A stretch of DNA of 64,000 bases from Clostridia bacterium. GTDB lineage: Bacteria > Bacillota > Clostridia > RUG12999. A program made the position numbers and the translations under genes. Where the stretch lies: contig JAZQYO010000030.1 in assembly GCA_045633565.1 (NCBI GenBank), positions 26,075 to 90,074 of the forward strand, read 5' to 3'. How positions within the stretch are numbered: the first letter of the stretch is position 1; every line of letters starts with the position of its first letter. This document shows positions 34,052 to 62,339 of this stretch, one piece after another. The notes beneath the pieces were generated by a model. The model was not told where the DNA came from and did not search any database. It was given only the letters and a program-made list of their open reading frames with translations.

Positions 34052-34060
34052 AAAGATATA

Positions 34061-34133
34061 CTTTTACATGACTGACGGTTTCGCGGAGCACCGCGGGGGA
34101 ATGTAAAAGTTTTTAAGCCGACCGTCTGGGCAA
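34061..34133 (+). ncRNA. ZMP/ZTP-sensing (pfl) riboswitch aptamer
   Basis: P1 CTTTTACAT/ATGTAAAAG enclosing GACTGACGG and the GCGGAGCACCGCGGGG hairpin, short linker, then GCCGACCGTCTGGGCA; pseudoknot GACGG/CCGTC; lies upstream of pfl as is typical. Confidence 0.9.
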
Positions 34134-34168
34134 TTCGCGATTTTCCGCGGGTTGCCCTTTTTTGTTTT
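34128..34168 (+). terminator. Riboswitch expression-platform terminator
   Basis: GGGCAATTCGCG-ATTTTC-CGCGGGTTGCCC-TTTTTTGTTTTT overlaps the aptamer 3' GGGCA. Confidence 0.85.
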
Positions 34169-34182
34169 TCTAAAAAGGAGAG

Positions 34183-36414
34183 ATGGCTATGACAGAAAAA
34201 AACTGGAACGGATTTAAAGGTGAACTCTGGAAAAAAGAGATTAATGTTCGTGATTTTATTCAGGCAAACTATAAAGAATATACCGGCGATGCATGTTTTC
34301 TTGCCGGAGCGACAGCACGCACAAATGACCTGATGAAAAAGGTCCGGGCGCTTTTTGCACTTGAAAGGCAGTATGGCGGTGTTTTAGACATTGACACAAC
34401 AACAGTTTCTTCGCTGACCAGCTACTCACCGGGATATGTAGATAAAGACAATGAAATTATCGTAGGTATGCAGACAAACAGGCCACTTAAACGTGGTGTA
34501 AATCCCTTTGGAGGAATGAGAATGGTGCGTCAGGCGTGCGAAGCCTACGGATATAAGCTCAGTTTAAAGGTTGAGGAGGAATTTACCTACCGTACAACCC
34601 ATAATGACGGTGTTTTCCGTGCATATACCGATGAAATGAGACAGGCAAGAAAATGCCATGTTATTACGGGTCTGCCTGACGCTTACGGCAGAGGAAGAAT
34701 AATTGGTGACTATCGCAGAGTTGCACTTTATGGTGTTGACAGACTTATTGAAGAAAAGAAAAAGGATAAATCAAAGCTTGCAAACGGTATTTTTGATACG
34801 GAAAACATCCGGTTGGATGAAGAGCTTTTTCAGCAGATAACCTTTTTGGGATATATGAAGGAAATGGCGGCAATGTACGGGTTTGATATTTCTCGTCCCG
34901 CAGAAAATGCAAGGGAGGCTATTCAGTGGACCTATTTCGCTTATCTTGCTGCGATAAAAGAACAAAACGGTGCTGCAATGTCACTTGGCAGAGTGAGTAC
35001 TTTCTTTGATATTTACATTGAAAGGGATATAGCTGCCGGTATACTCACTGAGGAAACTGCACAGGAGCTTATGGACGATTTTGTTATAAAACTCCGTATG
35101 GCAAGGCACCTCAGAACCCCCGAATATAATGAACTTTTTGGCGGTGACCCCATGTGGATTACCGAAGCGGTAGGAGGTATGGGTGAGGACGGAAGAACGC
35201 TTGTTACAAAAAGCAGCTACCGTATGCTCAACACTCTTTATACTCTCGGCTCATCTCCTGAGCCAAATCTTACGGTACTATGGTCAAATTCGCTGCCGGA
35301 AAATTTCAAAAACTTCTGTGCGAAAGTGTCGGCGGACACCGATTCAATTCAGTATGAAAACGACGATATAATGCGCCCCATTTACGGCGACGATTATGCC
35401 ATTGCCTGCTGCGTATCCGCAATGAAGGTTGGTAAACAGATGCAGTTTTTCGGAGCAAGATGCAACCTTGCAAAACTGCTTCTCATCGCCATTAACGGTG
35501 GTTATGACACCACAAGCGGTATGCACATCGGACCGCAGATGCCTGTGATGGAAAACCTTGAATTTGATAAGGTTATGGAGCGTTTTGATATTTACATTAA
35601 ATGGCTGAGCCATCTTTATGTCAACACCATGAACGTTATCCATTATATGCACGATAAATATGCTTATGAAAAAACGCAGATGGCACTTCACGATACACAG
35701 GTTGAACGCCTGATGGCGTTTGGAATTGCGGGTCTTTCAGTTGTTGCAGATTCGCTCAGCGCAATAAAATATGCAAAGGTTACAGCTGTTAAAAATGAGG
35801 ACGGATTTATAACCGATTTTGAAAGAGAAGGCGATTTCCCCAAATTCGGCAATGATGACGACCGTGTGGACCTTATTGCAAAGGACATGACGCACAGGGT
35901 TATAACAGAGCTTCGGAAAACACCAACCTACAGAAATGCAGTTCACACCCTGTCGGTGCTTACAATAACCTCCAACGTTATGTACGGCAAAAACACAGGG
36001 GCAACCCCGGATGGCAGAGAAGCGTCAGCACCTTTTGCACCGGGTGCAAACCCAATGCATAACAGGGAGGAAAATGGTGCACTGGCATCCCTTAACTCAG
36101 TTGCGAAAATCAGTTATGACGACTGCCGTGACGGTATCTCAAACACATTCTCTATCACCCCCGAAGCGCTTGGCAGAACCGAGGAAGAAAGGACGAAAAA
36201 TCTTGTATCGGTTCTGGACGGTTATTTTGCCAAAAAAGCGCATCATATAAACGTAAACGTACTGAATAGAGAAACTTTGATGAAAGCATACGATGACCCT
36301 GAAAGCTACCCCAATCTTACCATTCGTGTTTCCGGATACGCTGTTAACTTCAACAAGCTGTCCCGTGAACAACAACGTGAGGTCATCAGTCGCACATTCC
36401 ATGAGGCAATGTAG
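34183..36414 (+). CDS. pflB: Pyruvate formate-lyase (formate C-acetyltransferase)
   Basis: [23 protein letters not shown] (Cys-Cys), LTIRVSGY (glycyl radical). Confidence 0.96.
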
Positions 36415-36416
36415 TT

Positions 36417-37121
36417 ATGAAGGGAAGAGTACATTCTATTCAGACGCTCGGTACGCTTGACGGACCGGGGGTGAGATTTGTGGTGTTTTTACAAGGGTGC
36501 AATCTGCGCTGCAAATGCTGTCATAACCCGGACACATGGGATGTGTCGGACGGAAAAGTTTTTTCTGCTGATGAGATAGTGAAAAAAGCGGTGAGATATA
36601 AAGAATATTATGGGACAGAAGGCGGAATAACTTTATCAGGTGGGGAACCGCTTTTGCAGGCGGAATTTGCCCGCGAGATTTTTTCTCTTTGCCATAAAGA
36701 AAAAATAAACACCTGTCTTGACACCTCGGGAAGCCTACTGAATGAAAAGGTTAAGGCACTTCTTGAGGAAACCGACCGCGTGCTTCTTGATATAAAATAT
36801 ACAACCGACGAACTTTATCTTGAAAACGCAGGGTGCAGACTAAGTGGGGTGCTGGATTTTCTGTCATACGTTAACGTAAAAAGCATCCCCACAACGCTCA
36901 GACAGGTTATTATTCCTACCATGAATGACAGTGAGGAAAACATTTTACAATTAAAGGAAATTGCAAAAAATCATCCTTGTGTGGACAAAGTTGAGCTTTT
37001 GCCCTTTAAAAAAATATGTCAGACAAAATATGATGAAATGAAAATTCCTTTTCCGCTTAGGCATCTGCCACAGCCGGAAAAGGAACTGATGGAAAAACTG
37101 ACAAAACTCTTTGATGGTTAA
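36417..37121 (+). CDS. pflA: Pyruvate formate-lyase activating enzyme (radical SAM)
   Basis: DGPGVRFVVFLQGCNLRCKCCHNPDTW, GITLSGGEP, LDTSG. Confidence 0.95.
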   Translation: MKGRVHSIQTLGTLDGPGVRFVVFLQGCNLRCKCCHNPDTWDVSDGKVFSADEIVKKAVRYKEYYGTEGGITLSGGEPLLQAEFAREIFSLCHKEKINTCLDTSGSLLNEKVKALLEETDRVLLDIKYTTDELYLENAGCRLSGVLDFLSYVNVKSIPTTLRQVIIPTMNDSEENILQLKEIAKNHPCVDKVELLPFKKICQTKYDEMKIPFPLRHLPQPEKELMEKLTKLFDG

Positions 37122-37160: not shown

Positions 37161-37332
37161 TTTCTGCATAAATTTTACCGGAAAGTGCTCTGAAGATACA
37201 TTTATAGTAAAAGTATACAAAAAAATTTTTTAGATATTGTGAAAAATATTATTGATTTTCGCAGTGATTGATGGTATAATTAATTGGTACAACTATTGTT
37301 ATCAATTTTTTTATATCAAAGGAGAGAAAATT

Positions 37333-40300
37333 ATGAGAAAGATTATCAGTACAATGCTTGTTCTCGTAATGGTTCTTTCCGTGTTCACTTCCTTCAGTGC
37401 CGGTGCAGCTCACTGGGCACAGGAAGCTATTGATTATGTAACCGCAAATGGTTACTGGATAGCTTCGGGAGATTTTGAACCGGACAGACCGGCAACAAGA
37501 GCTGAAACAGCATCGCTTTTTGCAAGAATTTTGATTTCCAAAATTCCTGAAAACAATGGTGCTTATGTAGACGTTCCTGCTGACAATATTTACGGCGGTG
37601 ACATTACAGCAGCTTCACTCATGGGTCTTATGGTAGGTTATGACGGAAAGTTCAGACCTGAAGACCTTGTTACAAGAGAAGAACTTGCTTGTATTCTTGA
37701 CAGAGCAGCTAAAATGGTTTCCGACGAATTTGAGGACACCGATTATAATATGGCTCTGCTTAAGGACAGAGACCTGGTAAGTGACTGGGCGCTTCAGAGC
37801 GTTAAGAACGCATCTGAATATGTTCTTATGAAGGGTAAAGGTCACAAGCTGTTTGACCCTAAGGGACAGACAACACGTGCAGAAGTTGCAACTGTTGTTA
37901 AAGCACTTGCTGACATAGCTGATGTTAACAACTCTAAAGTTACAGTTCCTTACACTGTAAGAGACCTTACCTCAAAAGATAATATTCAGGTAGACTTTGA
38001 TGTTCTTCAGTCTGCAAGACCTCAAATGAGTTCCGGCTTCGGTGGTTTTGCAATGATGGCTCGTCTTTCCGGCGGCACACAGAACATCTATCTGCAGAGA
38101 ATTCACTATGACAGACAGAGTATGAGCGCAATGGCTCATCCCCCTTCACGTGTTCGTATAGAAGACCCCAATGGTAACGTTGTTTGCCGTGTTGATATGG
38201 ACTATAAAGAAGGTAACATGGAAAAAATTGTTACCCTTACAAATGCACCTGAAGGTATTTACAGGGTTATATTTGTATCCGGTTCAACACTTGATACCAT
38301 GTCCATCGGTTTCCAGCAGCCTATAAGTTGGGGATTTGTTCCGCTTGACATGTTCCACTTCACATCTACACAGGCTCAGCCCGACTGGTACTTCTATGTA
38401 CCTAAAAAGTTTGCAATGCTTGCATACGGTATCGGTGGTGCAGGTGCAACAGCACAGATTTGGACCAAAGACGGCAGAACCCGTCTTCAGACAACCGACG
38501 TTTCAACAGGTACATACTATCAGAAAAGAAAGTCTATAACAACTCTCACACCTGATACAGTTTATATGATGAAACTTCCTGAAAAATTCACAGGAATGTT
38601 TGGTATGGTTGGTATTTCTGCGCTTATGTGCCCAACACCTGAAATGGCTGAGGACTTAAAGGGTGGATACATTTACTATTCCGATGAATATGGCGACTGG
38701 CAGTTTGAAGGTCCCAAACAGGCTGAAGCAAGAAAGCTTGCGGTTCAAATATACGAAGAAAATAAAGACAACCTCGAGGTTGACCTTGATAGTCTCGGCG
38801 TTCCCAGTGAACCTCCCGCAAGAGGCACTCTTGACAACCCGAGAGCAGAAGCAATGCTCTATTCTGCATATTTCGGTTCCATCAACGGTACTAAAGAAAA
38901 CCTTCAGAAACAGTGTCTTGACCCCACAAGCCCCTGGTTCGGTGGATTCAGAACTATGGCTGAAAACACAGGTGAGACAGACCCGCCGGAATTTGACTGG
39001 CAGCATCGTTTCACCCACGATAGAGGCGGCGGCATGAGCAGAAGTCTGGTCGGCGCACTCACAATCAATGCTGAAATTAACTATTGGTATGCTAACCCCG
39101 TGCTCCAGAAGAGACTTGAACTTGCTTGGCTGGGTCGTGCTATGCAGATTGGTTCAACAGGCCACCACACAGCTGCAAACCCAACGGCAGAAGCCGGATG
39201 TAGTAACTATTTCAGACAGCACGAAAACTTCCAGTTCGGTGAACAGGGCTGGATTCACGGCTACTATTATTCCAAGAACTGGCTGTCACCCAGAGTAAAA
39301 GCTTTAACAGATGACCTTTTCCACAGAGACGCTGAAGCCGTTTGTATGGCACAGGGTCAGGGTGTATCCAACCAGATGTTCATGCACGTTCAGGGTTCTC
39401 AGTATTCATATATGTGCTTTAATGATGAATTCTTCCACGAATGGTTTGCAAGAGATATAGCAGCTATCAAATACCCGTCCTCACAGCCCGGTTACCTCGG
39501 TCAGGTATCACCTCAGGGTTACTGGACAGAGTCTGGTGGTCCGGACGGCGGTTCTTACGGACGAATGGCAGAAGCAATGTGGGATGACTTTACAATGAAC
39601 TATCTCACAATGCCCGAAGAAAAACAGCGTCCTGAAGTTGTTGCAGACCTTAAAGAAGCAACAGAACGCTTCCTTATGTGGGATAGCCAGTGGTATGCTC
39701 AGCGTGTAGGCAAATTCCAAGCAAGACGCTCCAACGCATGGACATCCCGTGAACCTGCCGGCATGGGTGGCGGTTCTGCGCTCCCCGGCAACTCATACAT
39801 TCAGTACTTCTTCCCGAGAGCTATGGCTAACCATGACGCTCAGGTTGCAGGTGTTGAAGACCCCGATACATTTACAGACCCGTACAATGATGCTGCTGCA
39901 AGCACATGTGCGGCGGTTATCACCTCTGATGAGTGGGCATATCAATATATTGAAAAAACAGTATGGCCAAAATATTTCAAGAGAGTCAGAGATGACAGAG
40001 CGGACTCTTATGTAGGCGGTTCTTCCTGGTCACAATATAAGGCACTTCACTTAGGTGGCGCAACATTTGACTATTCAGAAGTTCCGGTGCTTCCTTATGT
40101 AATGGAAGGCAATTACAACATTTATGACCTTCCGGGCGGTTCAATCGCTGCAAAACATGACGGTCTTTATGTTTTAACTTACTACAACAACGACATCGGT
40201 AACAGATTTGCAGGCAAAGCATGGATTCATCCGGGTCCTACTCAGATGTGGGATGAATACTTCAGTACAATCTCATCATCTATGGAACCTCTGAGCCGTA

Positions 40301-40887
40301 AAGGTCTCAGTGATGGTATGAATGCCTCCGGATACCGTGATGCAAGCTGCAACGACTACAGACAGTGGCAGGTTGAACCCGAAATTGTTCACATGACAAT
40401 TCTTGGTTTCAATGACGGTGGTCAGCTCTTTATGGAAGGTAAGGGCGAAGCTGTATGTAACTGGATTGAAGAAGGTAAATCCTGGGCAATCACTCATACA
40501 GACCCGTTCTCACTCAGAAATACAACCTGGAAATACTTCATGCATGACGAAGGCTGGACATTTGAAGCCGGCTTTGATGATGGTGTATTAGACGGCGAAG
40601 ACCTTTGGGTACAGATTCCGCTTAATGACCCCAGCATTGACGTTCCTGAAGCACAGTTCATTTATGACGCTGAAGCTCGTCAGGTTATTATGGAACACGA
40701 AGGTCACACTGTAACATTCTCATGGGATGAAGGTATCGAATCCAAAATTGAGAATAAAAAAGGAGATTCTGACCCGCTCAGATGTCTCAAACTTAAACTC
40801 ACACCCGAACATCCGTTTGCAAGATTCCATGTTACAAGAGATATGGGCGATTACGTATTCGTTCGCGGAGTTCGTGACGGTAAATAA
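37333..40887 (+). CDS. Large secreted S-layer-homology (SLH) domain protein with an uncharacterised ~950-aa C-terminal region
   Basis: ATG at 37333 after AAGGAG; signal peptide ending AGA; three SLH repeats (HWAQEAI..FEPDRPATRAE; FRPEDLVTREE; VSDWA..FDPKGQTTRAE). Confidence 0.85.
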   Translation: MRKIISTMLVLVMVLSVFTSFSAGAAHWAQEAIDYVTANGYWIASGDFEPDRPATRAETASLFARILISKIPENNGAYVDVPADNIYGGDITAASLMGLMVGYDGKFRPEDLVTREELACILDRAAKMVSDEFEDTDYNMALLKDRDLVSDWALQSVKNASEYVLMKGKGHKLFDPKGQTTRAEVATVVKALADIADVNNSKVTVPYTVRDLTSKDNIQVDFDVLQSARPQMSSGFGGFAMMARLSGGTQNIYLQRIHYDRQSMSAMAHPPSRVRIEDPNGNVVCRVDMDYKEGNMEKIVTLTNAPEGIYRVIFVSGSTLDTMSIGFQQPISWGFVPLDMFHFTSTQAQPDWYFYVPKKFAMLAYGIGGAGATAQIWTKDGRTRLQTTDVSTGTYYQKRKSITTLTPDTVYMMKLPEKFTGMFGMVGISALMCPTPEMAEDLKGGYIYYSDEYGDWQFEGPKQAEARKLAVQIYEENKDNLEVDLDSLGVPSEPPARGTLDNPRAEAMLYSAYFGSINGTKENLQKQCLDPTSPWFGGFRTMAENTGETDPPEFDWQHRFTHDRGGGMSRSLVGALTINAEINYWYANPVLQKRLELAWLGRAMQIGSTGHHTAANPTAEAGCSNYFRQHENFQFGEQGWIHGYYYSKNWLSPRVKALTDDLFHRDAEAVCMAQGQGVSNQMFMHVQGSQYSYMCFNDEFFHEWFARDIAAIKYPSSQPGYLGQVSPQGYWTESGGPDGGSYGRMAEAMWDDFTMNYLTMPEEKQRPEVVADLKEATERFLMWDSQWYAQRVGKFQARRSNAWTSREPAGMGGGSALPGNSYIQYFFPRAMANHDAQVAGVEDPDTFTDPYNDAAASTCAAVITSDEWAYQYIEKTVWPKYFKRVRDDRADSYVGGSSWSQYKALHLGGATFDYSEVPVLPYVMEGNYNIYDLPGGSIAAKHDGLYVLTYYNNDIGNRFAGKAWIHPGPTQMWDEYFSTISSSMEPLSRKGLSDGMNASGYRDASCNDYRQWQVEPEIVHMTILGFNDGGQLFMEGKGEAVCNWIEEGKSWAITHTDPFSLRNTTWKYFMHDEGWTFEAGFDDGVLDGEDLWVQIPLNDPSIDVPEAQFIYDAEARQVIMEHEGHTVTFSWDEGIESKIENKKGDSDPLRCLKLKLTPEHPFARFHVTRDMGDYVFVRGVRDGK

Positions 40888-56100: not shown

Positions 56101-56176
56101 GGGCGCATAGCTCAGCTGGGAGAGCATCTGCCTTACAAGCAGAGGGTCACAGGTTCGAGCCCTGTTGTGCCCACCA
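56101..56176 (+). tRNA. tRNA-Val (TAC)
   Basis: Cloverleaf, anticodon loop CT-TAC-AA, GTTCGAG T-loop, encoded CCA. Confidence 0.95.
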
Positions 56177-56182
56177 TACCAT

Positions 56183-56259
56183 GGCCCGGTAGTTCAGTTG
56201 GTTAGAACGCTAGCCTGTCACGCTAGAGGTCGAGAGTTCGAGTCTCTTCCGGGTCGCCA
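56183..56259 (+). tRNA. tRNA-Asp (GTC)
   Basis: Anticodon arm CTAGC-CTGTCAC-GCTAG, encoded CCA. Confidence 0.95.
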
Positions 56260-56278
56260 CTTTTTAAAAAGTGTGTTC

Positions 56279-56354
56279 GCCTCTGTAGCTCAGTTGGTAG
56301 AGCAGGGGACTGAAAATCCCCGTGTCGGTGGTTCGATTCCGCCCGGAGGCACCA
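56279..56354 (+). tRNA. tRNA-Phe (GAA)
   Basis: Anticodon arm GGGGA-CTGAAAA-TCCCC, encoded CCA. Confidence 0.95.
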
Positions 56355-56360
56355 AAATAT

Positions 56361-56435
56361 GCGGGAGTGACTCAGTGGTAGAGTGTCACCTTGCCAAGGT
56401 GAAAGTCGCGAGTTCGAATCTCGTCTTCCGCTCCA
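56361..56435 (+). tRNA. tRNA-Gly (GCC)
   Basis: Anticodon arm TCACC-TTGCCAA-GGTGA, encoded CCA. Confidence 0.95.
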
Positions 56436-56440
56436 CGAAT

Positions 56441-56470
56441 GAAAAAGACGCACTTAGCTGCGTCTTTTTC
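56441..56470. terminator. Terminator-like hairpin between tRNA-Gly and tRNA-Cys
   Basis: GAAAAAGACGCA-CTTAGC-TGCGTCTTTTTC. Confidence 0.7.
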
Positions 56471-56493
56471 ACTAAAAAACTAAATAATTATAA

Positions 56494-56567
56494 GGCACCA
56501 TAGCCAAGTGGTAAGGCAGAGGTCTGCAACACCTTTACCCCCAGTTCAAGTCTGGGTGGTGCCTCCA
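56494..56567 (+). tRNA. tRNA-Cys (GCA)
   Basis: Acceptor GGCACCA/TGGTGCC, U73 discriminator, anticodon arm GAGGT-CTGCAAC-ACCTT, encoded CCA. Confidence 0.93.
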
Positions 56568-56668: not shown

Positions 56669-57868
56669 ATGATATTATCAGAAAATCTTGACCATGTATA
56701 TTCAGACATCAGGGGCGACATTTACATGCACGCACTTGAACTTGAAAAACAGGGGAATAAAGTGCTCAAATTAAACACAGGAAACCCTGCTGCGTTCGGA
56801 TTTAAAATGCCGGACAGCATTAAAAACAGAATTGTTACCGATGTTGAAAAAGCGCTGGGCTATTGCGATTTAAAGGGTATGCCGGTTGCAAGAGCCGCTA
56901 TCAGGGATTATCACCTGTCAAAAGGACTTAAAAACATCACTGAAGATGATGTTTTTATCGGAAATGGTGTAAGTGAAGTTGCACATATGATTATTGCATC
57001 TCTTGTGGGAAAAGGTGATGAAGTTCTTGTTCCTACTCCGTGCTATTCTCTGTGGACAAACTTTACATACCTTTCAGGCGGTAATGTTCGTTTTTATGAA
57101 TGTGATGAAGCGAACGGATGGCAGCCTGATATTGACAGCATTAAAAAAGCTGTTACCAATAAAACAAAAGCTATTGTTGTTATAAACCCCAACAATCCTA
57201 CAGGTGCTTTATATTCAGAAGAAATTCTGCTGGAAATTATTGATATTGCACGTAAAAACAATCTTGTTCTTATCTCTGACGAGATATACGACAGACTTGT
57301 TATGGATGAAAAACAGCACACATCTACAGCTGCCCTTGCTGATGATGTAACAATAGTTACAATGAATGGTCTTTCCAAATCACACTGTATATGTGGCTTA
57401 AGATGCGGATGGATTTGCCTCAGTGGCAGGGAAGAAGAAAAGAAGGTGCTGAGAGATGCTCTTGTAAGAATTGCATCTGTAAGACTTTGTTCAAATGCTC
57501 TTATGCAGCTGGTAATTCCCGATGCACTTAGCGACCCTGAATACACTAAAGATATGATTGGTACAAACGGCAGAATTTTCAGACAGAGAGAAGCTACAAC
57601 ACAGGAACTTGATAAAATTGACGGAATAACCTATGTGAAAAACTCGGCTGCATTTTACCTCTTCCCCAAAATAGACATTAAAAAGTTCGGTTTTGAAAGC
57701 GACAGAGACTTTGCAAGACAGCTGCTCGATGAAAAACACATATTAATAATACCGGGAAGCGGCTTTAACTGCGTAGATAAAGAACATTTCAGAATTGTAA
57801 TGCTTCCTGAAGAAAATGCATTGAGAGATGCTATAAGAAGTATTGGCGATTTTTTGGCAAAAAGATAA
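56669..57868 (+). CDS. alaA: PLP-dependent class I/II aminotransferase (AlaA/AlaT-like)
   Basis: LKLNTGNPA.FGF, GNGVSE, INPNNPTG, SDEIYD, NGLSKS (PLP Lys), G.RCGW. Confidence 0.85.
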   Translation: MILSENLDHVYSDIRGDIYMHALELEKQGNKVLKLNTGNPAAFGFKMPDSIKNRIVTDVEKALGYCDLKGMPVARAAIRDYHLSKGLKNITEDDVFIGNGVSEVAHMIIASLVGKGDEVLVPTPCYSLWTNFTYLSGGNVRFYECDEANGWQPDIDSIKKAVTNKTKAIVVINPNNPTGALYSEEILLEIIDIARKNNLVLISDEIYDRLVMDEKQHTSTAALADDVTIVTMNGLSKSHCICGLRCGWICLSGREEEKKVLRDALVRIASVRLCSNALMQLVIPDALSDPEYTKDMIGTNGRIFRQREATTQELDKIDGITYVKNSAAFYLFPKIDIKKFGFESDRDFARQLLDEKHILIIPGSGFNCVDKEHFRIVMLPEENALRDAIRSIGDFLAKR

Positions 57869-57872
57869 GTTA

Positions 57873-57908
57873 AATAATCCCGCCGTCACTGACGGCGGGA
57901 TTATTTTA
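57873..57908 (+). terminator. Intrinsic terminator after the aminotransferase gene
   Basis: AATAATCCCGCCGTCA-C-TGACGGCGGGATTATTTT. Confidence 0.85.
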
Positions 57909-57937: not shown

Positions 57938-57966
57938 TTGACAAAATTAAACTCACGTGATATAAT
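57938..57966 (+). promoter_or_regulatory. Sigma-A promoter of the T-box leader
   Basis: Perfect TTGACA-N17-TATAAT. Confidence 0.88.
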
Positions 57967-57974
57967 TCATAAAA

Positions 57975-58252
57975 ATAAACGCAATGATACGGAATAGTAT
58001 GTGAGCACCTTTACCCTATAGAGAGATGCCGGTTGGTGTAAGGCATTGGGGAGGGTTTGCAGAACTCACCGTGGAGCGGCTGCTGTGAAATTAAAGTAGG
58101 GGCAGACGGGAACTCCCGTTACAGAGTTAAGATGTGTTGGCATCTAAAGTGCATCCGATAAGGGTGAAAAAGAGTGGTACCGCGGAAAGTTAAATTTGTT
58201 TTTTAACGTTTTCGTCTCTTTGAATCGACAAGGAGACGGAAGCGTGTTTTTG
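57975..58252 (+). ncRNA. T-box riboswitch, Leu-specific (specifier CUC)
   Basis: Stem I with AGAGA/GGTG distal motifs, specifier loop GAA-CTC-A (58064-58066), AGTA in stem II, CCGTTA, T-box AGAGTGGTACCGCG (58171-58184; UGGU fits tRNA-Leu A73), terminator ACGTTTTCGTCTC...GAGACGGAAGCGT-GTTTTT. Confidence 0.9.
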
Positions 58253-58298: not shown

Positions 58299-59687
58299 AT
58301 GAGAAAAATCAATATCACAGACATCACACTCAAAAAGCTCTCGCAGGACAGAGAGGTTTCACTTTTGTTCCGTGAGAAAACTGCAATAGCTGCGTGTGCA
58401 GATTCACTTGGCGTTGATGCCATTGAACTTGCACCTGTAAAAAACGTTCGTGAAGATACTATTATTTATAAAACAATAGCTCAGAACACTCTCAGCAGAA
58501 AGGTTGTAATTCCGGCAGGATTTACTGCTGAAGAAGTGGACGCAGCGTGGGAATGCGTAAAGGATGCAAAATATCCCCGTCTGCAGATTGAGCTTCCGGT
58601 TTCAACTGTTCAGATGGAATATATCTATCATGTAAAAGCTGATAAAATGGCAGTGAAAATAGCCCAGCTTACAGCTCATGCAAAAAAACTTTGCGGTGAC
58701 ATAGAATTTGCGGCGCTTGATGCAACAAGGGCGGATGAGGAATTTTTAATTCAGGCTGCAAAAGAGGCAGAAGCAAATGGTGCAGGAATTATCACAATTT
58801 GCGATGATGCAGGAGTATCGCTTCCGGAAGAAATTGCACAGCTTGTAAAGAAAATCAAAGCGGCAGTAAAAATTCCTGTATATGTTCAGGTGTCTGACCG
58901 TATTGGTATGGCGGTTGCAGCGGCGGTAGCGGCAATCGGTGCAGGCGCAGACGGAATTAAGTGTGCAATGGCATCGGGAGATGCACTGTCTATGGGAGAA
59001 TTTTCAGATGCGATAAGTGCGCGCAGTGAAGCAATCGGCGCTGAAACCGGACTTAAAAATACCAAAATTCATGCAAGTATTGACGAAATGCTTGAAAGCA
59101 TAAATCATCAGGCTTATGAAACTGAAGAAAAAGTAAGTGAAAAGAAAAAAATCCTGCTTGACAGCGACAGCACAATTTCGCAGGTAGCTCAGGCGGCACA
59201 GGTTCTCGGTTACGACCTGTCTGATGGGGACTGTGGCAATGTTCACAAAGCACTGATGCAGGTTTGTGAGAAAAAGGCGTCAGTTGGGGCAAAGGAATTT
59301 GAGGCACTCATTGCAAGCTCTGCTATGCAGGCGCCCTCTACATATCATCTTGAAAGCTATAGCACAAACTGCGGTAACCTCACAAGCTCAATGTCACAGG
59401 TTACACTCAGAAATGGAGATGAAATTCTCTGTGGTGTAAGCACAGGCGACGGTCCTATTGACTCTGCATTCCGTGCAATTGAACAATGCATTGGTTATCA
59501 CTATGAGCTGGATGATTTTCAGGTTCAGGCTGTAACTGAGGGTAAAGAAGCTCTCGGTTCTGCGCTTGTAAGACTTCGTAACAATGGCAAGCTTTATTCA
59601 GGAAACGGTATTTCAACCGACATTGTTGCGGCAAGTATCAGAGCATATATTAACGCACTGAACAAGATTGTATTTGAGGAGGAATAA
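58299..59687 (+). CDS. LeuA (2-isopropylmalate synthase)-like protein with a degenerate catalytic barrel and an intact C-terminal regulatory domain
   Basis: Collinear with LeuA (DATRAD, DDAG..LP, LGYDLS, GDGPIDSAFRAI, STDIVAASIRAYINALN) but DTTLRDGEQ is DITLKKLSQ, HxH is QVS, and the GERAGN motif is absent. Confidence 0.85.
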   Translation: MRKINITDITLKKLSQDREVSLLFREKTAIAACADSLGVDAIELAPVKNVREDTIIYKTIAQNTLSRKVVIPAGFTAEEVDAAWECVKDAKYPRLQIELPVSTVQMEYIYHVKADKMAVKIAQLTAHAKKLCGDIEFAALDATRADEEFLIQAAKEAEANGAGIITICDDAGVSLPEEIAQLVKKIKAAVKIPVYVQVSDRIGMAVAAAVAAIGAGADGIKCAMASGDALSMGEFSDAISARSEAIGAETGLKNTKIHASIDEMLESINHQAYETEEKVSEKKKILLDSDSTISQVAQAAQVLGYDLSDGDCGNVHKALMQVCEKKASVGAKEFEALIASSAMQAPSTYHLESYSTNCGNLTSSMSQVTLRNGDEILCGVSTGDGPIDSAFRAIEQCIGYHYELDDFQVQAVTEGKEALGSALVRLRNNGKLYSGNGISTDIVAASIRAYINALNKIVFEEE

Positions 59688-59688
59688 G

Positions 59689-62145
59689 ATGAAACTCGCA
59701 TTTTCAACTAAAAATGTAAATCGTGCATCTTTCCTCGATACCTGCCGTTATGCTTATGATTACGGATTTTCGGGATTTGAAATATATGATGCGGTTAAAG
59801 AAAGAAAGTCACATTATGACAGTATTCTCCGCAGTGACAGAGTGTCTGATGCAAAAAGAAAGCTTTTAAACCGCGGACTTTCTGTGTCTGCACTGACATA
59901 TCCTTGTTCGCTGGAAAGTGATGAGGCAACTTCAGAATCAATTGTGAAGTATGTGGATATGGCGGCAGGTGCGGCAATAGAACGTGTTATTGTCCGTGTT
60001 GAAAAGGAAACTGAAAACACAGTCCTTGCCCAAAAGCTCGGGGAAGCGATTAAAAGGGCAGAACAGGCAGATGTCCAGATTTTGATTGAAACGGTTGGGT
60101 ATCTTTCCAAAACTGAAAAGGTTATTGATATAATAAACTTTTTCTCTTCTGCGGCAGTTGGCGCTTCCTGGAATATCAGGGCGACATATTTTGATGCAGG
60201 AGAAAGTGGTGAAACAACCATTAAAAACTTAGGGGCATATATTAAATATGTGCGCCTGGGCGACATGGCAGACGGGAAAACGGTTCTTATTGGTGAAGGA
60301 GAACTTCCGGTAGATAAAATTGTAAATGCGCTTTCTTCACTGAACTACGATGGCTTCGTATGCGTAGCGTGGAATGAGGAAATTAACGATGCGGACATTG
60401 TTCTGACACATTTTGCAAACTATATCGCATCGCTGAGCAGGGACAAAAAGGAATATGACAAAGCATACTACAACAGAGCCAAAACAGGTACGTTTGTATG
60501 GAAAAAATACGATATTGTTGATGCTACATTCTCGGATGTTCTTGACACAATGGTGGAAAAATATCCTGACCAGTATGCTTTCAAATACACAACGCTTGAT
60601 TACACAAGAACTTATAAAGAGTTCCGCAGAGATGTTGATGAATGTGCAGCTGCACTCATTTCTCTCGGTGTAAAAGCAGGGGACCATGTTGCTGTCTGGG
60701 CAACAAATGTTCCGGCTTGGTTTATTACCTTTTGGGCAACAACCAAAATCGGGGCAGTTCTTGTAACAGTAAATACGGCTTATAAAATTCACGAAATTGA
60801 ATATCTTTTAAAACAGTCGGACACTCATACTCTTGTTATGATTGAGGATTGCAAGGACATTAACTACCGTGAAATTATTCGGGAGCTTTGCCCCGAGCTT
60901 GAAAATCTGCAGCCGGGAGATGCGTTATATACAAAAAATCTGCCATTTTTGCGCAATGTTATAACAGTAGGGTTTTCCATGCCCGGCTGTCTGACATGGG
61001 AGCAGATGCTTTCCCGTGCAAAAATGGTTCCGCATGAAGAGGTAAGAAGACGAGCATCACTCGTTAAGCCTGACGATGTATGTAATATGCAGTATACATC
61101 AGGCACAACAGGTTTCCCCAAAGGGGTTATGCTTACACACAGAAATATTGTAAATAACGGCAAAACCATCGGTGACAGAATGGATTTATCCACTGCTGAC
61201 CGTATGATGATTCAGGTGCCAATGTTCCACTGCTTCGGCATGGTACTTTCCATGACATCCATGATGACTCACGGTGGTACACTTTCGCCAATGCCATATT
61301 TCTCGCCAAAATCATCTCTGGCGTGCATCAACGAAGAACGCATAACCTGTTTCAACGGCGTTCCTACAATGTTTATTGCACTCTTCAACCATGCTGATTT
61401 TGCCAAAACCGATTTTTCATATATGCGCACCGGAATTATGGCGGGTGCAAACTGCCCGGCAGACCTTATGCGACGTGCAGCCGATGAAATGAATATGAAG
61501 GAAATCATTTCGGTTTACGGTCAGACAGAGGCGTCGCCTGGTTGTACAATGGGCGAGGTTAATGAAGATATTGACCACCGTGTTGAAACTGTCGGAAGTG
61601 CGTTCCCGGGAGTTGAATGTAAAATTATTGACCCCGAAACAGGGGAAGAACTCCCCGATGGCGAAAGCGGAGAGTTTGTTGCACGTGGATTTAACATCAT
61701 GAAAGGTTATTATAAAATGCCTGAAGCTACCGCGCAGACAATTGATGCTGACGGTTGGCTCCACTCAGGGGATATCTGTTGCCGTACCCCGGACGGATAC
61801 TATAAGGTAACGGGTCGTCTTAAGGATATGATTATCCCGGGCGGTGAGAACCTTTATCCTCGTGAGATTGAAGAATTTTATCTCACACACCCCAAAGTTC
61901 GTGACGTGCAGGTTGTAGGCGTTCCGGACGAAAGATACGGAGAAGAATGTTGCGCATGGATTATTCTTCATAAGGGGGAAGAATCGGACGAAAATGAAAT
62001 GCGTGAATTCGGTAATTCGGCAATTGCCCGTCATAAAGTTCCGAGATATTTTGTTTTCGTAAAAGAATTCCCGATGAATGCAGCGGGGAAAATTTTAAAA
62101 TACAAAATGCGTGAAGAATCAGCGCAGATGCTGGGGCTTAAATGA
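59689..62145 (+). CDS. Acyl-CoA synthetase (AMP-binding, fatty acyl-CoA ligase/YngI-like) fused to an N-terminal xylose-isomerase-like TIM barrel
   Basis: ATG at 59689 after GAGGAGG; N-terminal ~250 aa of the sugar-phosphate isomerase/epimerase (AP_endonuc_2) type; ANL motifs QYTSGTTGFPKG, YGQTE, GWLHSGD, GRLKD, terminal GKILK lysine. Confidence 0.9.
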   Translation: MKLAFSTKNVNRASFLDTCRYAYDYGFSGFEIYDAVKERKSHYDSILRSDRVSDAKRKLLNRGLSVSALTYPCSLESDEATSESIVKYVDMAAGAAIERVIVRVEKETENTVLAQKLGEAIKRAEQADVQILIETVGYLSKTEKVIDIINFFSSAAVGASWNIRATYFDAGESGETTIKNLGAYIKYVRLGDMADGKTVLIGEGELPVDKIVNALSSLNYDGFVCVAWNEEINDADIVLTHFANYIASLSRDKKEYDKAYYNRAKTGTFVWKKYDIVDATFSDVLDTMVEKYPDQYAFKYTTLDYTRTYKEFRRDVDECAAALISLGVKAGDHVAVWATNVPAWFITFWATTKIGAVLVTVNTAYKIHEIEYLLKQSDTHTLVMIEDCKDINYREIIRELCPELENLQPGDALYTKNLPFLRNVITVGFSMPGCLTWEQMLSRAKMVPHEEVRRRASLVKPDDVCNMQYTSGTTGFPKGVMLTHRNIVNNGKTIGDRMDLSTADRMMIQVPMFHCFGMVLSMTSMMTHGGTLSPMPYFSPKSSLACINEERITCFNGVPTMFIALFNHADFAKTDFSYMRTGIMAGANCPADLMRRAADEMNMKEIISVYGQTEASPGCTMGEVNEDIDHRVETVGSAFPGVECKIIDPETGEELPDGESGEFVARGFNIMKGYYKMPEATAQTIDADGWLHSGDICCRTPDGYYKVTGRLKDMIIPGGENLYPREIEEFYLTHPKVRDVQVVGVPDERYGEECCAWIILHKGEESDENEMREFGNSAIARHKVPRYFVFVKEFPMNAAGKILKYKMREESAQMLGLK

Positions 62146-62146
62146 T

Positions 62147-62176
62147 AAAACAGGGCTACTTCGGCAGCCCTGTTTT
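62147..62176 (+). terminator. Intrinsic terminator closing the T-box operon
   Basis: AAAACAGGGCT-ACTTCGGC-AGCCCTGTTTT. Confidence 0.85.
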
Positions 62177-62195: not shown

Positions 62196-62339
62196 ATGAA
62201 AATTATTTTTGCAATTATTCTGGTAGCAGCGGTCTGTCTTTTCATATACCTTATCGGTAGAAAAGGGGATATAAAGAAAAATTGTAACAGCTGCATAAAC
62301 TGTCCCATAAAAGATTGCGCCGAAAGAAAAGAAGACTAA
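62196..62339 (+). CDS. Small membrane-anchored Cys-rich protein (FeoB-associated Cys-rich type), 47 aa
   Basis: ATG at 62196 after AAAGGTG; TM helix then CNSCINCP..C. Confidence 0.7.
   Translation: MKIIFAIILVAAVCLFIYLIGRKGDIKKNCNSCINCPIKDCAERKED

Follow-up and report, generated by a model that had tools for sequence, protein, structure and literature searches.

A LeuA-derived pseudoenzyme family as a candidate leucine sensor for an acyl-CoA ligase in gut Clostridia

In a 64,000-nucleotide stretch of contig JAZQYO010000030.1 (positions 26,075 to 90,074 of the forward strand; assembly GCA_045633565.1) from a Clostridia bacterium of the GTDB lineage RUG12999, hereafter the window, the gene at 58299-59687 encodes a descendant of 2-isopropylmalate synthase (IPMS, LeuA) that lacks the catalytic signatures of that enzyme and keeps its regulatory domain. 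We propose, with moderate confidence, that this protein, here called pseudo-LeuA, is a leucine-sensing, non-catalytic partner of an isovalerate-activating acyl-CoA ligase encoded by the next gene. The idea of a ligand sensor has strong circumstantial support in a leucine-specific T-box leader, an obligate coupling to the ligase gene and conserved regulatory motifs. A wider proposal is more tentative: that members of an undescribed family of LeuA-derived pseudoenzymes serve isovalerate-CoA ligases, which bear a second dead barrel, as allosteric subunits that sense leucine. Together with ligases under isoleucine and valine T-boxes, a ferredoxin-dependent 2-oxoacid oxidoreductase and a branched-chain aminotransferase, the family would define the long-sought genes with which Clostridia of gut and rumen reductively carboxylate branched-chain fatty acids to branched-chain amino acids.

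Pseudo-LeuA lacks five catalytic signatures of LeuA

The gene and the parts of its product are as follows (pLDDT, predicted local distance difference test).

58299..59687 (+): LeuA-derived pseudoenzyme gene, 462 amino acids, ATG start, stop codon at 59685-59687
58308..58973 (+): HMGL-like (DRE-TIM) barrel, residues 4-225 (PF00682, 8.5e-31)
58320..58346 (+): DITLKKLSQ for DTTLRDGEQ (D8-I-T-L-K12-K13-L-S-Q16); the substrate arginine is K12 and the metal-ligand aspartate K13
58716..58718 (+): L140 for the conserved glutamate of the F-S-x-E-D-A motif, by alignment to solved LeuA
58887..58895 (+): QVS (Q197-V-S199) for the metal-binding HxH (HCH), by alignment to solved LeuA
58944..58988 (+): GADGIKCAMASGDAL for GA.QVECT(I/V)NG(I/L)GERAGNA; GERAGN is lost, S-G-D-A with a gap being aligned there
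59109..59144 (+): disordered linker, residues 271-282 (pLDDT <50), found where about 35 amino acids, and with them sub-domain I (HESGIHQDG), have been deleted
59289..59669 (+): LeuA allosteric/dimerisation domain, residues 331-457 (PF08502, 9.7e-32, profile positions 4-130 of 131)

Residue-level alignments to the solved LeuA catalytic domains 3ewb, 3rmj and 3eeg show that five signatures are missing: RDGEQ, the ExD glutamate, HxH, GERAGN and HESGIHQDG, the last of which holds the catalytic histidine in LeuA of Mycobacterium tuberculosis. An earlier note on this DNA, made from the letters alone, had claimed the change of DTTLRDGEQ to DITLKKLSQ, the replacement of HxH by QVS and the absence of GERAGN, and all three are borne out by these alignments; the loss of the ExD glutamate (L140) and the deletion of HESGIHQDG extend its list. 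The note had also described the open reading frame (ORF) as full-length and uninterrupted. Uninterrupted it is, but 'full-length' is only approximately right because of the deletion of about 35 amino acids, which is common to all aligned members of the family and leaves pseudo-LeuA 40-50 amino acids shorter than canonical LeuA (500-516 amino acids). Its statement that the LeuA regulatory domain is kept agrees with the match to PF08502, and the comparison to HMGL-like and LeuA_dimer profiles that it had suggested finds both domains.

No NCBIfam model reaches its cut-off against pseudo-LeuA. The best of the LeuA equivalogs, NF002086, scores 249 bits versus a cut-off of 532, and TIGR00973 scores 228 versus 599. 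Since five signatures are replaced or deleted and the scores fall below the LeuA cut-offs, pseudo-LeuA is not expected to be an IPMS, and it is predicted from its sequence to be unable to perform LeuA chemistry.

The AlphaFold (AF2) model of pseudo-LeuA (pLDDT 91) has the LeuA fold, including the regulatory domain. Its barrel superposes on 3ewb in Foldseek with a template modelling (TM) score of 0.91 and a root-mean-square deviation of 1.8 A. The top Foldseek match is methylthioalkylmalate synthase (MAM; 6E1J), and further matches include 3rmj and the M. tuberculosis LeuA structures 1sr9, 3fig and 3hps, full-length and with the regulatory domain covered. A sequence search of the PDB with the C-terminal 182 amino acids alone gave no relevant match, and an exact-sequence look-up found no identical protein on record.

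A large family under purifying selection

A word-indexed search returned more than 7,000 relatives of pseudo-LeuA. The best 120 of these are nearly all 461-462 amino acids long (a few are 477-500) and share 76-89% identity with the window protein. Among 50%-identity representatives, an exhaustive search found about 110 full-length clusters of 453-497 amino acids and 30-51% identity that rank before canonical LeuA. Members carry the name 'hypothetical protein' at NCBI.

An alignment of 106 family representatives was used to count residues at the former catalytic positions. The substrate-arginine position is R in 34, K in 27 and C in 17, and the metal-aspartate position is E in 17, Q in 13, K and N in 11 each and D in 9. 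At the first histidine of HxH we found E in 24, Q in 15, S in 11, C in 10 and R in 9; the second is serine in 59 of the 106. The glutamate of F-S-x-E-D-A is E in 25, L in 24 and I in 13, with others beyond these. The motif losses thus hold across the representatives and are not a chance feature of one sequence. The catalytic positions vary, with no new conserved catalytic set in their place. Ancestral structural residues of the barrel that are conserved at 90% or more are D8, T10, P100, S102, E107, Y108, D141, A142, R144, D169 and G216.

The regulatory domain is the best-conserved part of the protein. G383, G385, G435, G437, D441, A453 and N455 are invariant, and P386, D388 and F391 are conserved at 90% or more. 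The window protein keeps GDGPIDSAF, VTEGKEALG and GISTDI..ASIRAYINALNKI, and the corresponding family motifs (GDGPIDA, VTEG.EA.G and G.S-TDI..AS..AY..A.NK) are those of bona fide LeuA.

All 85 of the 85 orthologous pseudo-LeuA ORFs are intact. Ratios of nonsynonymous to synonymous substitution rates (dN/dS, or omega) were calculated by the Nei-Gojobori method from 124 pairs with dS <1.5, for pseudo-LeuA and for the gene downstream, which encodes a xylose-isomerase-like barrel fused to the ligase.

Pseudo-LeuA, whole gene: 0.09
Pseudo-LeuA, dead barrel: 0.11
Pseudo-LeuA, linker: 0.14
Pseudo-LeuA, regulatory domain: 0.034
Downstream gene, whole: 0.044
Downstream gene, xylose-isomerase-like barrel: 0.076
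Downstream gene, ligase part: 0.030

Pseudogene decay is excluded because the ORFs are intact and omega for the whole gene is 0.09. The earlier note had argued for a maintained non-catalytic role, as ligand sensor or scaffold, rather than decay and had proposed a dN/dS comparison across orthologues; that comparison shows purifying selection, with neither relaxed selection nor broken ORFs, and the persistence of the family in more than 100 clusters at 50% identity agrees with the argument.

Three other LeuA-like proteins of 500-516 amino acids (P0242, P0246 and P0253) have partly degenerate motifs; examples among them are DTTLCDGEQ or DSTLCEGE, RAY for HxH, and a missing GIHQDG. Further independent pseudo-LeuA lineages may exist besides the present family.

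The gene is coupled to an acyl-CoA ligase with a second TIM barrel

Immediately downstream of pseudo-LeuA lies a gene for a two-part protein, in which a triosephosphate isomerase (TIM) barrel of the xylose-isomerase-like kind precedes an AMP-forming ligase.

59675..59691 (+): translational-coupling junction, with the Shine-Dalgarno sequence GAGGAGGA within the terminal codons (F-E-E-E-stop) and a single base between TAA and the ATG of the partner gene
59689..62145 (+): partner gene, 818 amino acids from ATG, xylose-isomerase-like TIM barrel fused to an AMP-forming acyl-CoA ligase
59689..60444 (+): xylose-isomerase-like TIM barrel (PF01261), residues 1 to about 252, a divergent member
60550..62091 (+): AMP-binding and AMP-binding_C domains (PF00501, PF13193), with intact YTSGTTGFPKG, YGQTE, GD..DGYY..GRLKD and AAGK
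62150..62176 (+): 8-base-pair hairpin rich in GC (ACAGGGCT/AGCCCTGT) with a short T-run behind it, read directly and absent from the list of a consensus scan

The best NCBIfam match of the ligase part is PRK12583, a fatty acid CoA ligase family (673 bits), and the hairpin at 62150-62176 probably ends a two-gene operon.

This fusion of xylose-isomerase-like barrel and AMP-binding domains is the next gene after pseudo-LeuA in all 88 sources, including those in which the identity of pseudo-LeuA falls to 34%. Eighty-one genome loci were assembled, the first (L001) through a look-up of P0120 and the others (L002-L081) through a scan of genome contigs, and the distant members have 34-47% identity; the 81 are metagenome-assembled genomes (MAGs) of Clostridia (Acutalibacteraceae, Christensenellaceae, Oscillospiraceae and Ruminococcus) from animal guts. 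The gap between stop and start is one nucleotide in 65 of the 88 sources, three have a four-nucleotide overlap, and in 86 the genes overlap or lie at most 11 nucleotides apart. Judged by this arrangement, pseudo-LeuA is predicted to be co-transcribed with an intact acyl-CoA ligase, and the two are probably co-translated. It is this operon context, absent from the earlier note, that points to a concrete role for pseudo-LeuA.

The model of the xylose-isomerase-like barrel (pLDDT 92) matches UlaE, ketose 3-epimerases and AsbF with TM scores of 0.72-0.78. In this superfamily the metal ligands are Glu-Asp-His-Glu at the ends of four successive strands. On a tentative mapping, based on strand ends, a weak alignment and this ligand order of the superfamily, E134 alone is kept, and N162, R189 and A227/W228 occupy the other three sites, where they are conserved in the family. 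This tentatively suggests that the domain is a second dead TIM barrel, in which case the operon would encode two dead barrels and one live enzyme. Nearly all homologues returned by a search with the domain were pieces of this fusion cut off at contig ends, which suggests that the domain exists only in the fusion.

A leucine T-box leader precedes the operon

Upstream of pseudo-LeuA we identified a strong promoter and a complete T-box leader (MFE, minimum free energy).

57938..57966 (+): sigma-70-type operon promoter, TTGACA, 17-nucleotide spacer, TG-TATAAT, with 12 of 12 matches
57975..58222 (+): T-box leader RNA, RF00230 over the full-length model, 136 bits (gathering score 93)
58065..58067 (+): specifier codon CUC (Leu), in specifier loop GAA-CUC-A of the Rfam alignment
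58172..58184 (+): conserved T-box sequence GAGUGGUACCGCG, in the antiterminator bulge, which pairs with the tRNA acceptor end
58206..58252 (+): intrinsic leader terminator, 17-base-pair stem then U-run, MFE -32.3 kcal/mol, z = -3.1

The match is to RF00230 and does not involve RF00233. Terminator and antiterminator overlap, the 5' arm of the former with the 3' side of the latter. With GAA-CUC-A in its loop, the specifier is leucine. A leucine-specific T-box in this position means that the pair would be transcribed when tRNA-Leu is uncharged, and on the evidence of the leader we assign the pseudo-LeuA/ligase pair to the leucine regulon. Leucine T-boxes are also known upstream of canonical leuA in some bacteria (PMC2494555, PMC2700814).

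Related leaders were found by fuzzy matching and checked against Rfam, and their specifiers were read by a heuristic, which was unsuccessful, or yielded odd codons, with about 16 leaders of the helix-turn-helix-cupin ligases described below and with three leuA-like leaders. T-box leaders occur upstream of pseudo-LeuA in 72 of 77 upstream regions, with Rfam confirmation in six loci. The specifier is CUC in 75 of the 79 T-box leaders upstream of pseudo-LeuA, including leaders that cannot otherwise be aligned, and CUG in one. A search of sequencing runs with the window sequence found only DNA metagenomes from gut and faeces (sheep gut included) and no RNA runs.

Four loci (L004, L005, L008 and L009) have no T-box. 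Instead, a Leu/Ile-rich leader ORF of 34-36 amino acids lies about 240-100 nucleotides upstream of pseudo-LeuA, with runs such as ILLLIAIIILAII (for example MNMSAFFTANILLLIAIIILAIIKQDKNSAVCRVLR), and is followed by a GC hairpin and T-run. It looks like a leader-peptide attenuator, which would be unusual for Clostridia; it could alternatively encode a small membrane protein. Aminotransferase, CbiA-like and oxidoreductase genes follow the ligase within the same operon at these four loci.

The pair lies within a wider branched-chain module

In at least 25 orthologous loci, and in the distant loci L082-L088, further genes recur within 10 kb of the pair.

Class IV (branched-chain) aminotransferase, Aminotran_4
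2-oxoacid:ferredoxin oxidoreductase, delta, alpha, beta and gamma subunits; in L085 a single-chain pyruvate:ferredoxin oxidoreductase (PFOR)
One or two additional ligases of about 755 amino acids, in fusion with HTH_3 and Cupin_2 domains
CbiA/ParA-like P-loop protein, about 220-266 amino acids, for example at L082 17573-18235, L086 15831-16490 and L087 4513-5313

The CbiA/ParA-like gene adjoins the oxidoreductase genes wherever the latter are seen. The fused ligases have T-boxes of their own (for example L028 9294-9530 (-), L067 2500-2732 (+) and L082 13840-14210 (+)), whose specifiers are AUC (Ile) in 20 cases and GUA (Val) in 18. The ligases under Ile and Val T-boxes are presumably 2-methylbutyrate and isobutyrate ligases. 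The three sets of codons, Leu, Ile and Val, point to one ligase per branched-chain amino acid, each induced by its uncharged tRNA. No leuBCD genes were present in any flank examined.

Carboxylation of isovalerate, 2-methylbutyrate and isobutyrate has been shown by labelling in rumen bacteria (Allison et al. 1962, 1966, 1971, cited in PMC7356843). The module fits the isovalerate-carboxylation route to leucine.

Proposed role of pseudo-LeuA and alternatives

In the route that we envisage, the ligase would convert isovalerate to isovaleryl-CoA, the 2-oxoacid:ferredoxin oxidoreductase would carboxylate this reductively to 2-ketoisocaproate, and the branched-chain aminotransferase would yield leucine. 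Pseudo-LeuA would form a dimer by way of its regulatory domain, whose conserved pocket would bind leucine, and would attach to the ligase, probably at the N-terminal xylose-isomerase-like barrel. When leucine is plentiful, pseudo-LeuA would then throttle the ligase, which catalyses the first step of the route, so that rapid feedback inhibition would complement the slower control by the T-box. The arrangement may plausibly have arisen from an ancestral unit of leucine T-box and leuA, in which the enzyme half became dispensable and the sensor half was reused. Within this scheme, the physical complex, the binding of leucine, the sense in which the ligase is regulated and isovalerate as its substrate are the parts that we infer.

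The reverse, catabolic direction from leucine to isovalerate was also considered. AMP-forming ligases work towards acyl-CoA and T-boxes switch on with uncharged tRNA, and the catabolic direction was rejected for these two reasons.

Several observations weigh against a leucine-sensing partner. The complex, leucine binding and effect on the ligase are proposed from genomic context, as is isovalerate as the substrate. Among the relatives searched, no fused (Rosetta-stone) form of pseudo-LeuA and ligase was found. The Ile and Val ligases have no LeuA-like partner, so such a partner is no general requirement for ligases of this type. The dead barrel is under strong constraint (omega 0.11), and polar residues of its catalytic face are kept (D8, T10, S102, E107, Y108, D141, R144 and D169), which would fit a ligand-binding or cryptic catalytic role as well. 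Finally, tblastn of the window with oxidoreductase, aminotransferase, PFOR and canonical LeuA queries matched only the two operon genes; the oxidoreductase and aminotransferase genes of this organism may lie elsewhere in the genome.

One alternative is a non-catalytic scaffold or assembly factor that does not sense leucine. Its task would be to give the ligase stability, to promote its oligomerisation, or to hold it at the oxidoreductase for the channelling of isovaleryl-CoA, with the regulatory domain serving for dimerisation only. The obligate and translationally coupled adjacency to the ligase, the constraint on a catalytically dead barrel and the frequent adjacency of oxidoreductase genes are all in keeping with it, and the LeuA_dimer domain is also a dimerisation domain. 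However, the regulatory domain, with its GxGPxDA loop and canonical motifs, is the most constrained part of pseudo-LeuA (omega 0.034), which exceeds the expected need of dimerisation, and the operon belongs specifically to the leucine regulon; we consider a pure scaffold unlikely.

The ligand could also be something other than leucine, such as 2-ketoisocaproate, isovaleryl-CoA or isovalerate, which would regulate the ligase by binding either to the regulatory domain or to the remodelled barrel. This strikes us as improbable, given that positions H96, F/Y98, S138, E140, N166, T170 and HxH, which are conserved in the canonical sequences compared and map to the substrate pocket of M. tuberculosis LeuA, vary in the family, and that the metal needed for holding a 2-oxoacid is gone. 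The conservation of several polar residues on the catalytic face at 90% or more speaks for it nonetheless, as does the presence of M. tuberculosis LeuA with ketoisocaproate bound (3hps) among the fold matches.

A cryptic enzyme, in which the barrel would catalyse a different, metal-independent reaction of the pathway, possibly jointly with the xylose-isomerase-like barrel, would fit the omega values of 0.11 and 0.076 for the two barrels and the invariant polar residues in each (D8, D141, R144 and D169 in the first; E134, R164, T166 and D192 in the second). The conserved residues of the first barrel are, however, those of canonical LeuA and form no catalytic constellation specific to the family, the catalytic lid (sub-domain I) is deleted, and ligase, oxidoreductase and aminotransferase already cover every step from isovalerate to leucine. 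On balance this reading seems improbable.

A working 2-isopropylmalate or citramalate synthase with unusual residues, or a decaying pseudogene, is scarcely credible: full-length homology to LeuA and a leucine T-box like that of canonical leuA in some bacteria (PMC2494555, PMC2700814) would suit an active synthase, but IPMS activity was rejected on the loss of the five catalytic signatures, the sub-cut-off LeuA scores and the absence of leuBCD from the flanks examined, and decay on the intact ORFs and the omega of 0.09.

Other features of the window

Just upstream of the operon, a class I aminotransferase gene (56669-57868, +) has alanine aminotransferase as its best match (333 bits, cut-off 534). 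It has a promoter-like site of its own, is followed by a strong terminator (57872-57906) and is separate from the T-box operon; among the other loci with a gene table that was viewed, its place beside the operon is not conserved. Five tRNA genes precede it at 56101-56567 (+), Val-TAC, Asp-GTC, Phe-GAA, Gly-GCC and Cys-GCA, and an ORF overlapping them (56165-56503) is spurious. Downstream of the operon, a small ORF at 62197-62339 (+) encodes a hydrophobic N-terminus and a Cys-rich tail (...NCNSCINCPIKDCAERKED); the product may resemble the small FeoB-associated Cys-rich membrane proteins.

Farther away, a ZMP/ZTP riboswitch (34058-34138, +; RF01750, 66 bits) precedes genes for pyruvate formate-lyase (34183-36414) and its activating enzyme (36417-37121), the classic and ordinary 'pfl motif' arrangement. 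A 1211-aa (amino acid) protein encoded at 37252-40887 (+) has Pfam matches limited to S-layer homology repeats.

Significance

That bacteria of the rumen and hindgut can form leucine, isoleucine and valine through carboxylation of isovalerate, 2-methylbutyrate and isobutyrate has been known since the 1960s, and it is for this reason that branched-chain volatile fatty acids are fed as supplements. In the literature we found no gene-level account of the activation step for the branched-chain acids or of its control, and no description of the pseudo-LeuA family, the ligase fusion or the T-box-labelled module, though subscription journals may hold some. The locus offers a testable gene set, with three ligases labelled by T-box codon (Leu, Ile and Val), an oxidoreductase and an aminotransferase, and would attach genes and control logic to a 60-year-old pathway. 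LeuA, an enzyme of the classical pathway, could have been recycled as a sensor for the alternative one; if true, this would be a new case of a pseudoenzyme acting as end-product sensor. As both LeuA Pfam domains are present, annotation that relies on domains could misjudge leucine prototrophy in MAGs from the gut.

Comparison with known systems

Like the solved LeuA enzymes (3EWB of Listeria monocytogenes, 3RMJ of Neisseria meningitidis, and 1SR9 and 3FIG of M. tuberculosis), pseudo-LeuA combines an HMGL-like barrel, the helical sub-domain II and a LeuA_dimer domain; its regulatory-domain motifs are the same in kind, and a leucine T-box can also precede canonical leuA. Unlike them, it is without the catalytic and metal-binding motifs and sub-domain I, is about 45 amino acids shorter and scores below all LeuA cut-offs, and its gene is never beside leuBCD and always beside an acyl-CoA ligase. 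MAM (6E1J) is likewise a descendant of LeuA recruited to a new pathway. There, however, catalysis was kept and the regulatory domain lost, the reverse of what is seen in the pseudo-LeuA family.

The isovalerate carboxylation of the rumen requires the same steps as are represented here by ligase, oxidoreductase and aminotransferase, and the hosts of the present gene set are Clostridia of gut and rumen. That route was defined by labelling, whereas its genes, T-box control and any LeuA-like component are not assigned in the literature found. A precedent for a CoA ligase acting on branched-chain acids is MbcS of Staphylococcus aureus, an AMP-forming enzyme that activates isobutyrate, 2-methylbutyrate and isovalerate (PMC10026030, PMC11167679). 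Unlike the ligase described here, MbcS feeds fatty-acid synthesis and is without an N-terminal TIM barrel, a LeuA-like partner and a T-box.

A parallel to the proposed arrangement may be drawn with histidine biosynthesis, in which HisZ, a dead paralogue of HisRS, is the histidine-sensing regulatory subunit of the short-form ATP-phosphoribosyltransferase HisG. The fold and the pathway are different, and complex and regulation are experimental for HisZ, whereas they are proposed for pseudo-LeuA. In both, nevertheless, a paralogue of an enzyme that binds the amino acid of the pathway has lost catalysis and serves, or in the case of pseudo-LeuA is proposed to serve, as the allosteric, end-product-sensing subunit of the first enzyme of the route.

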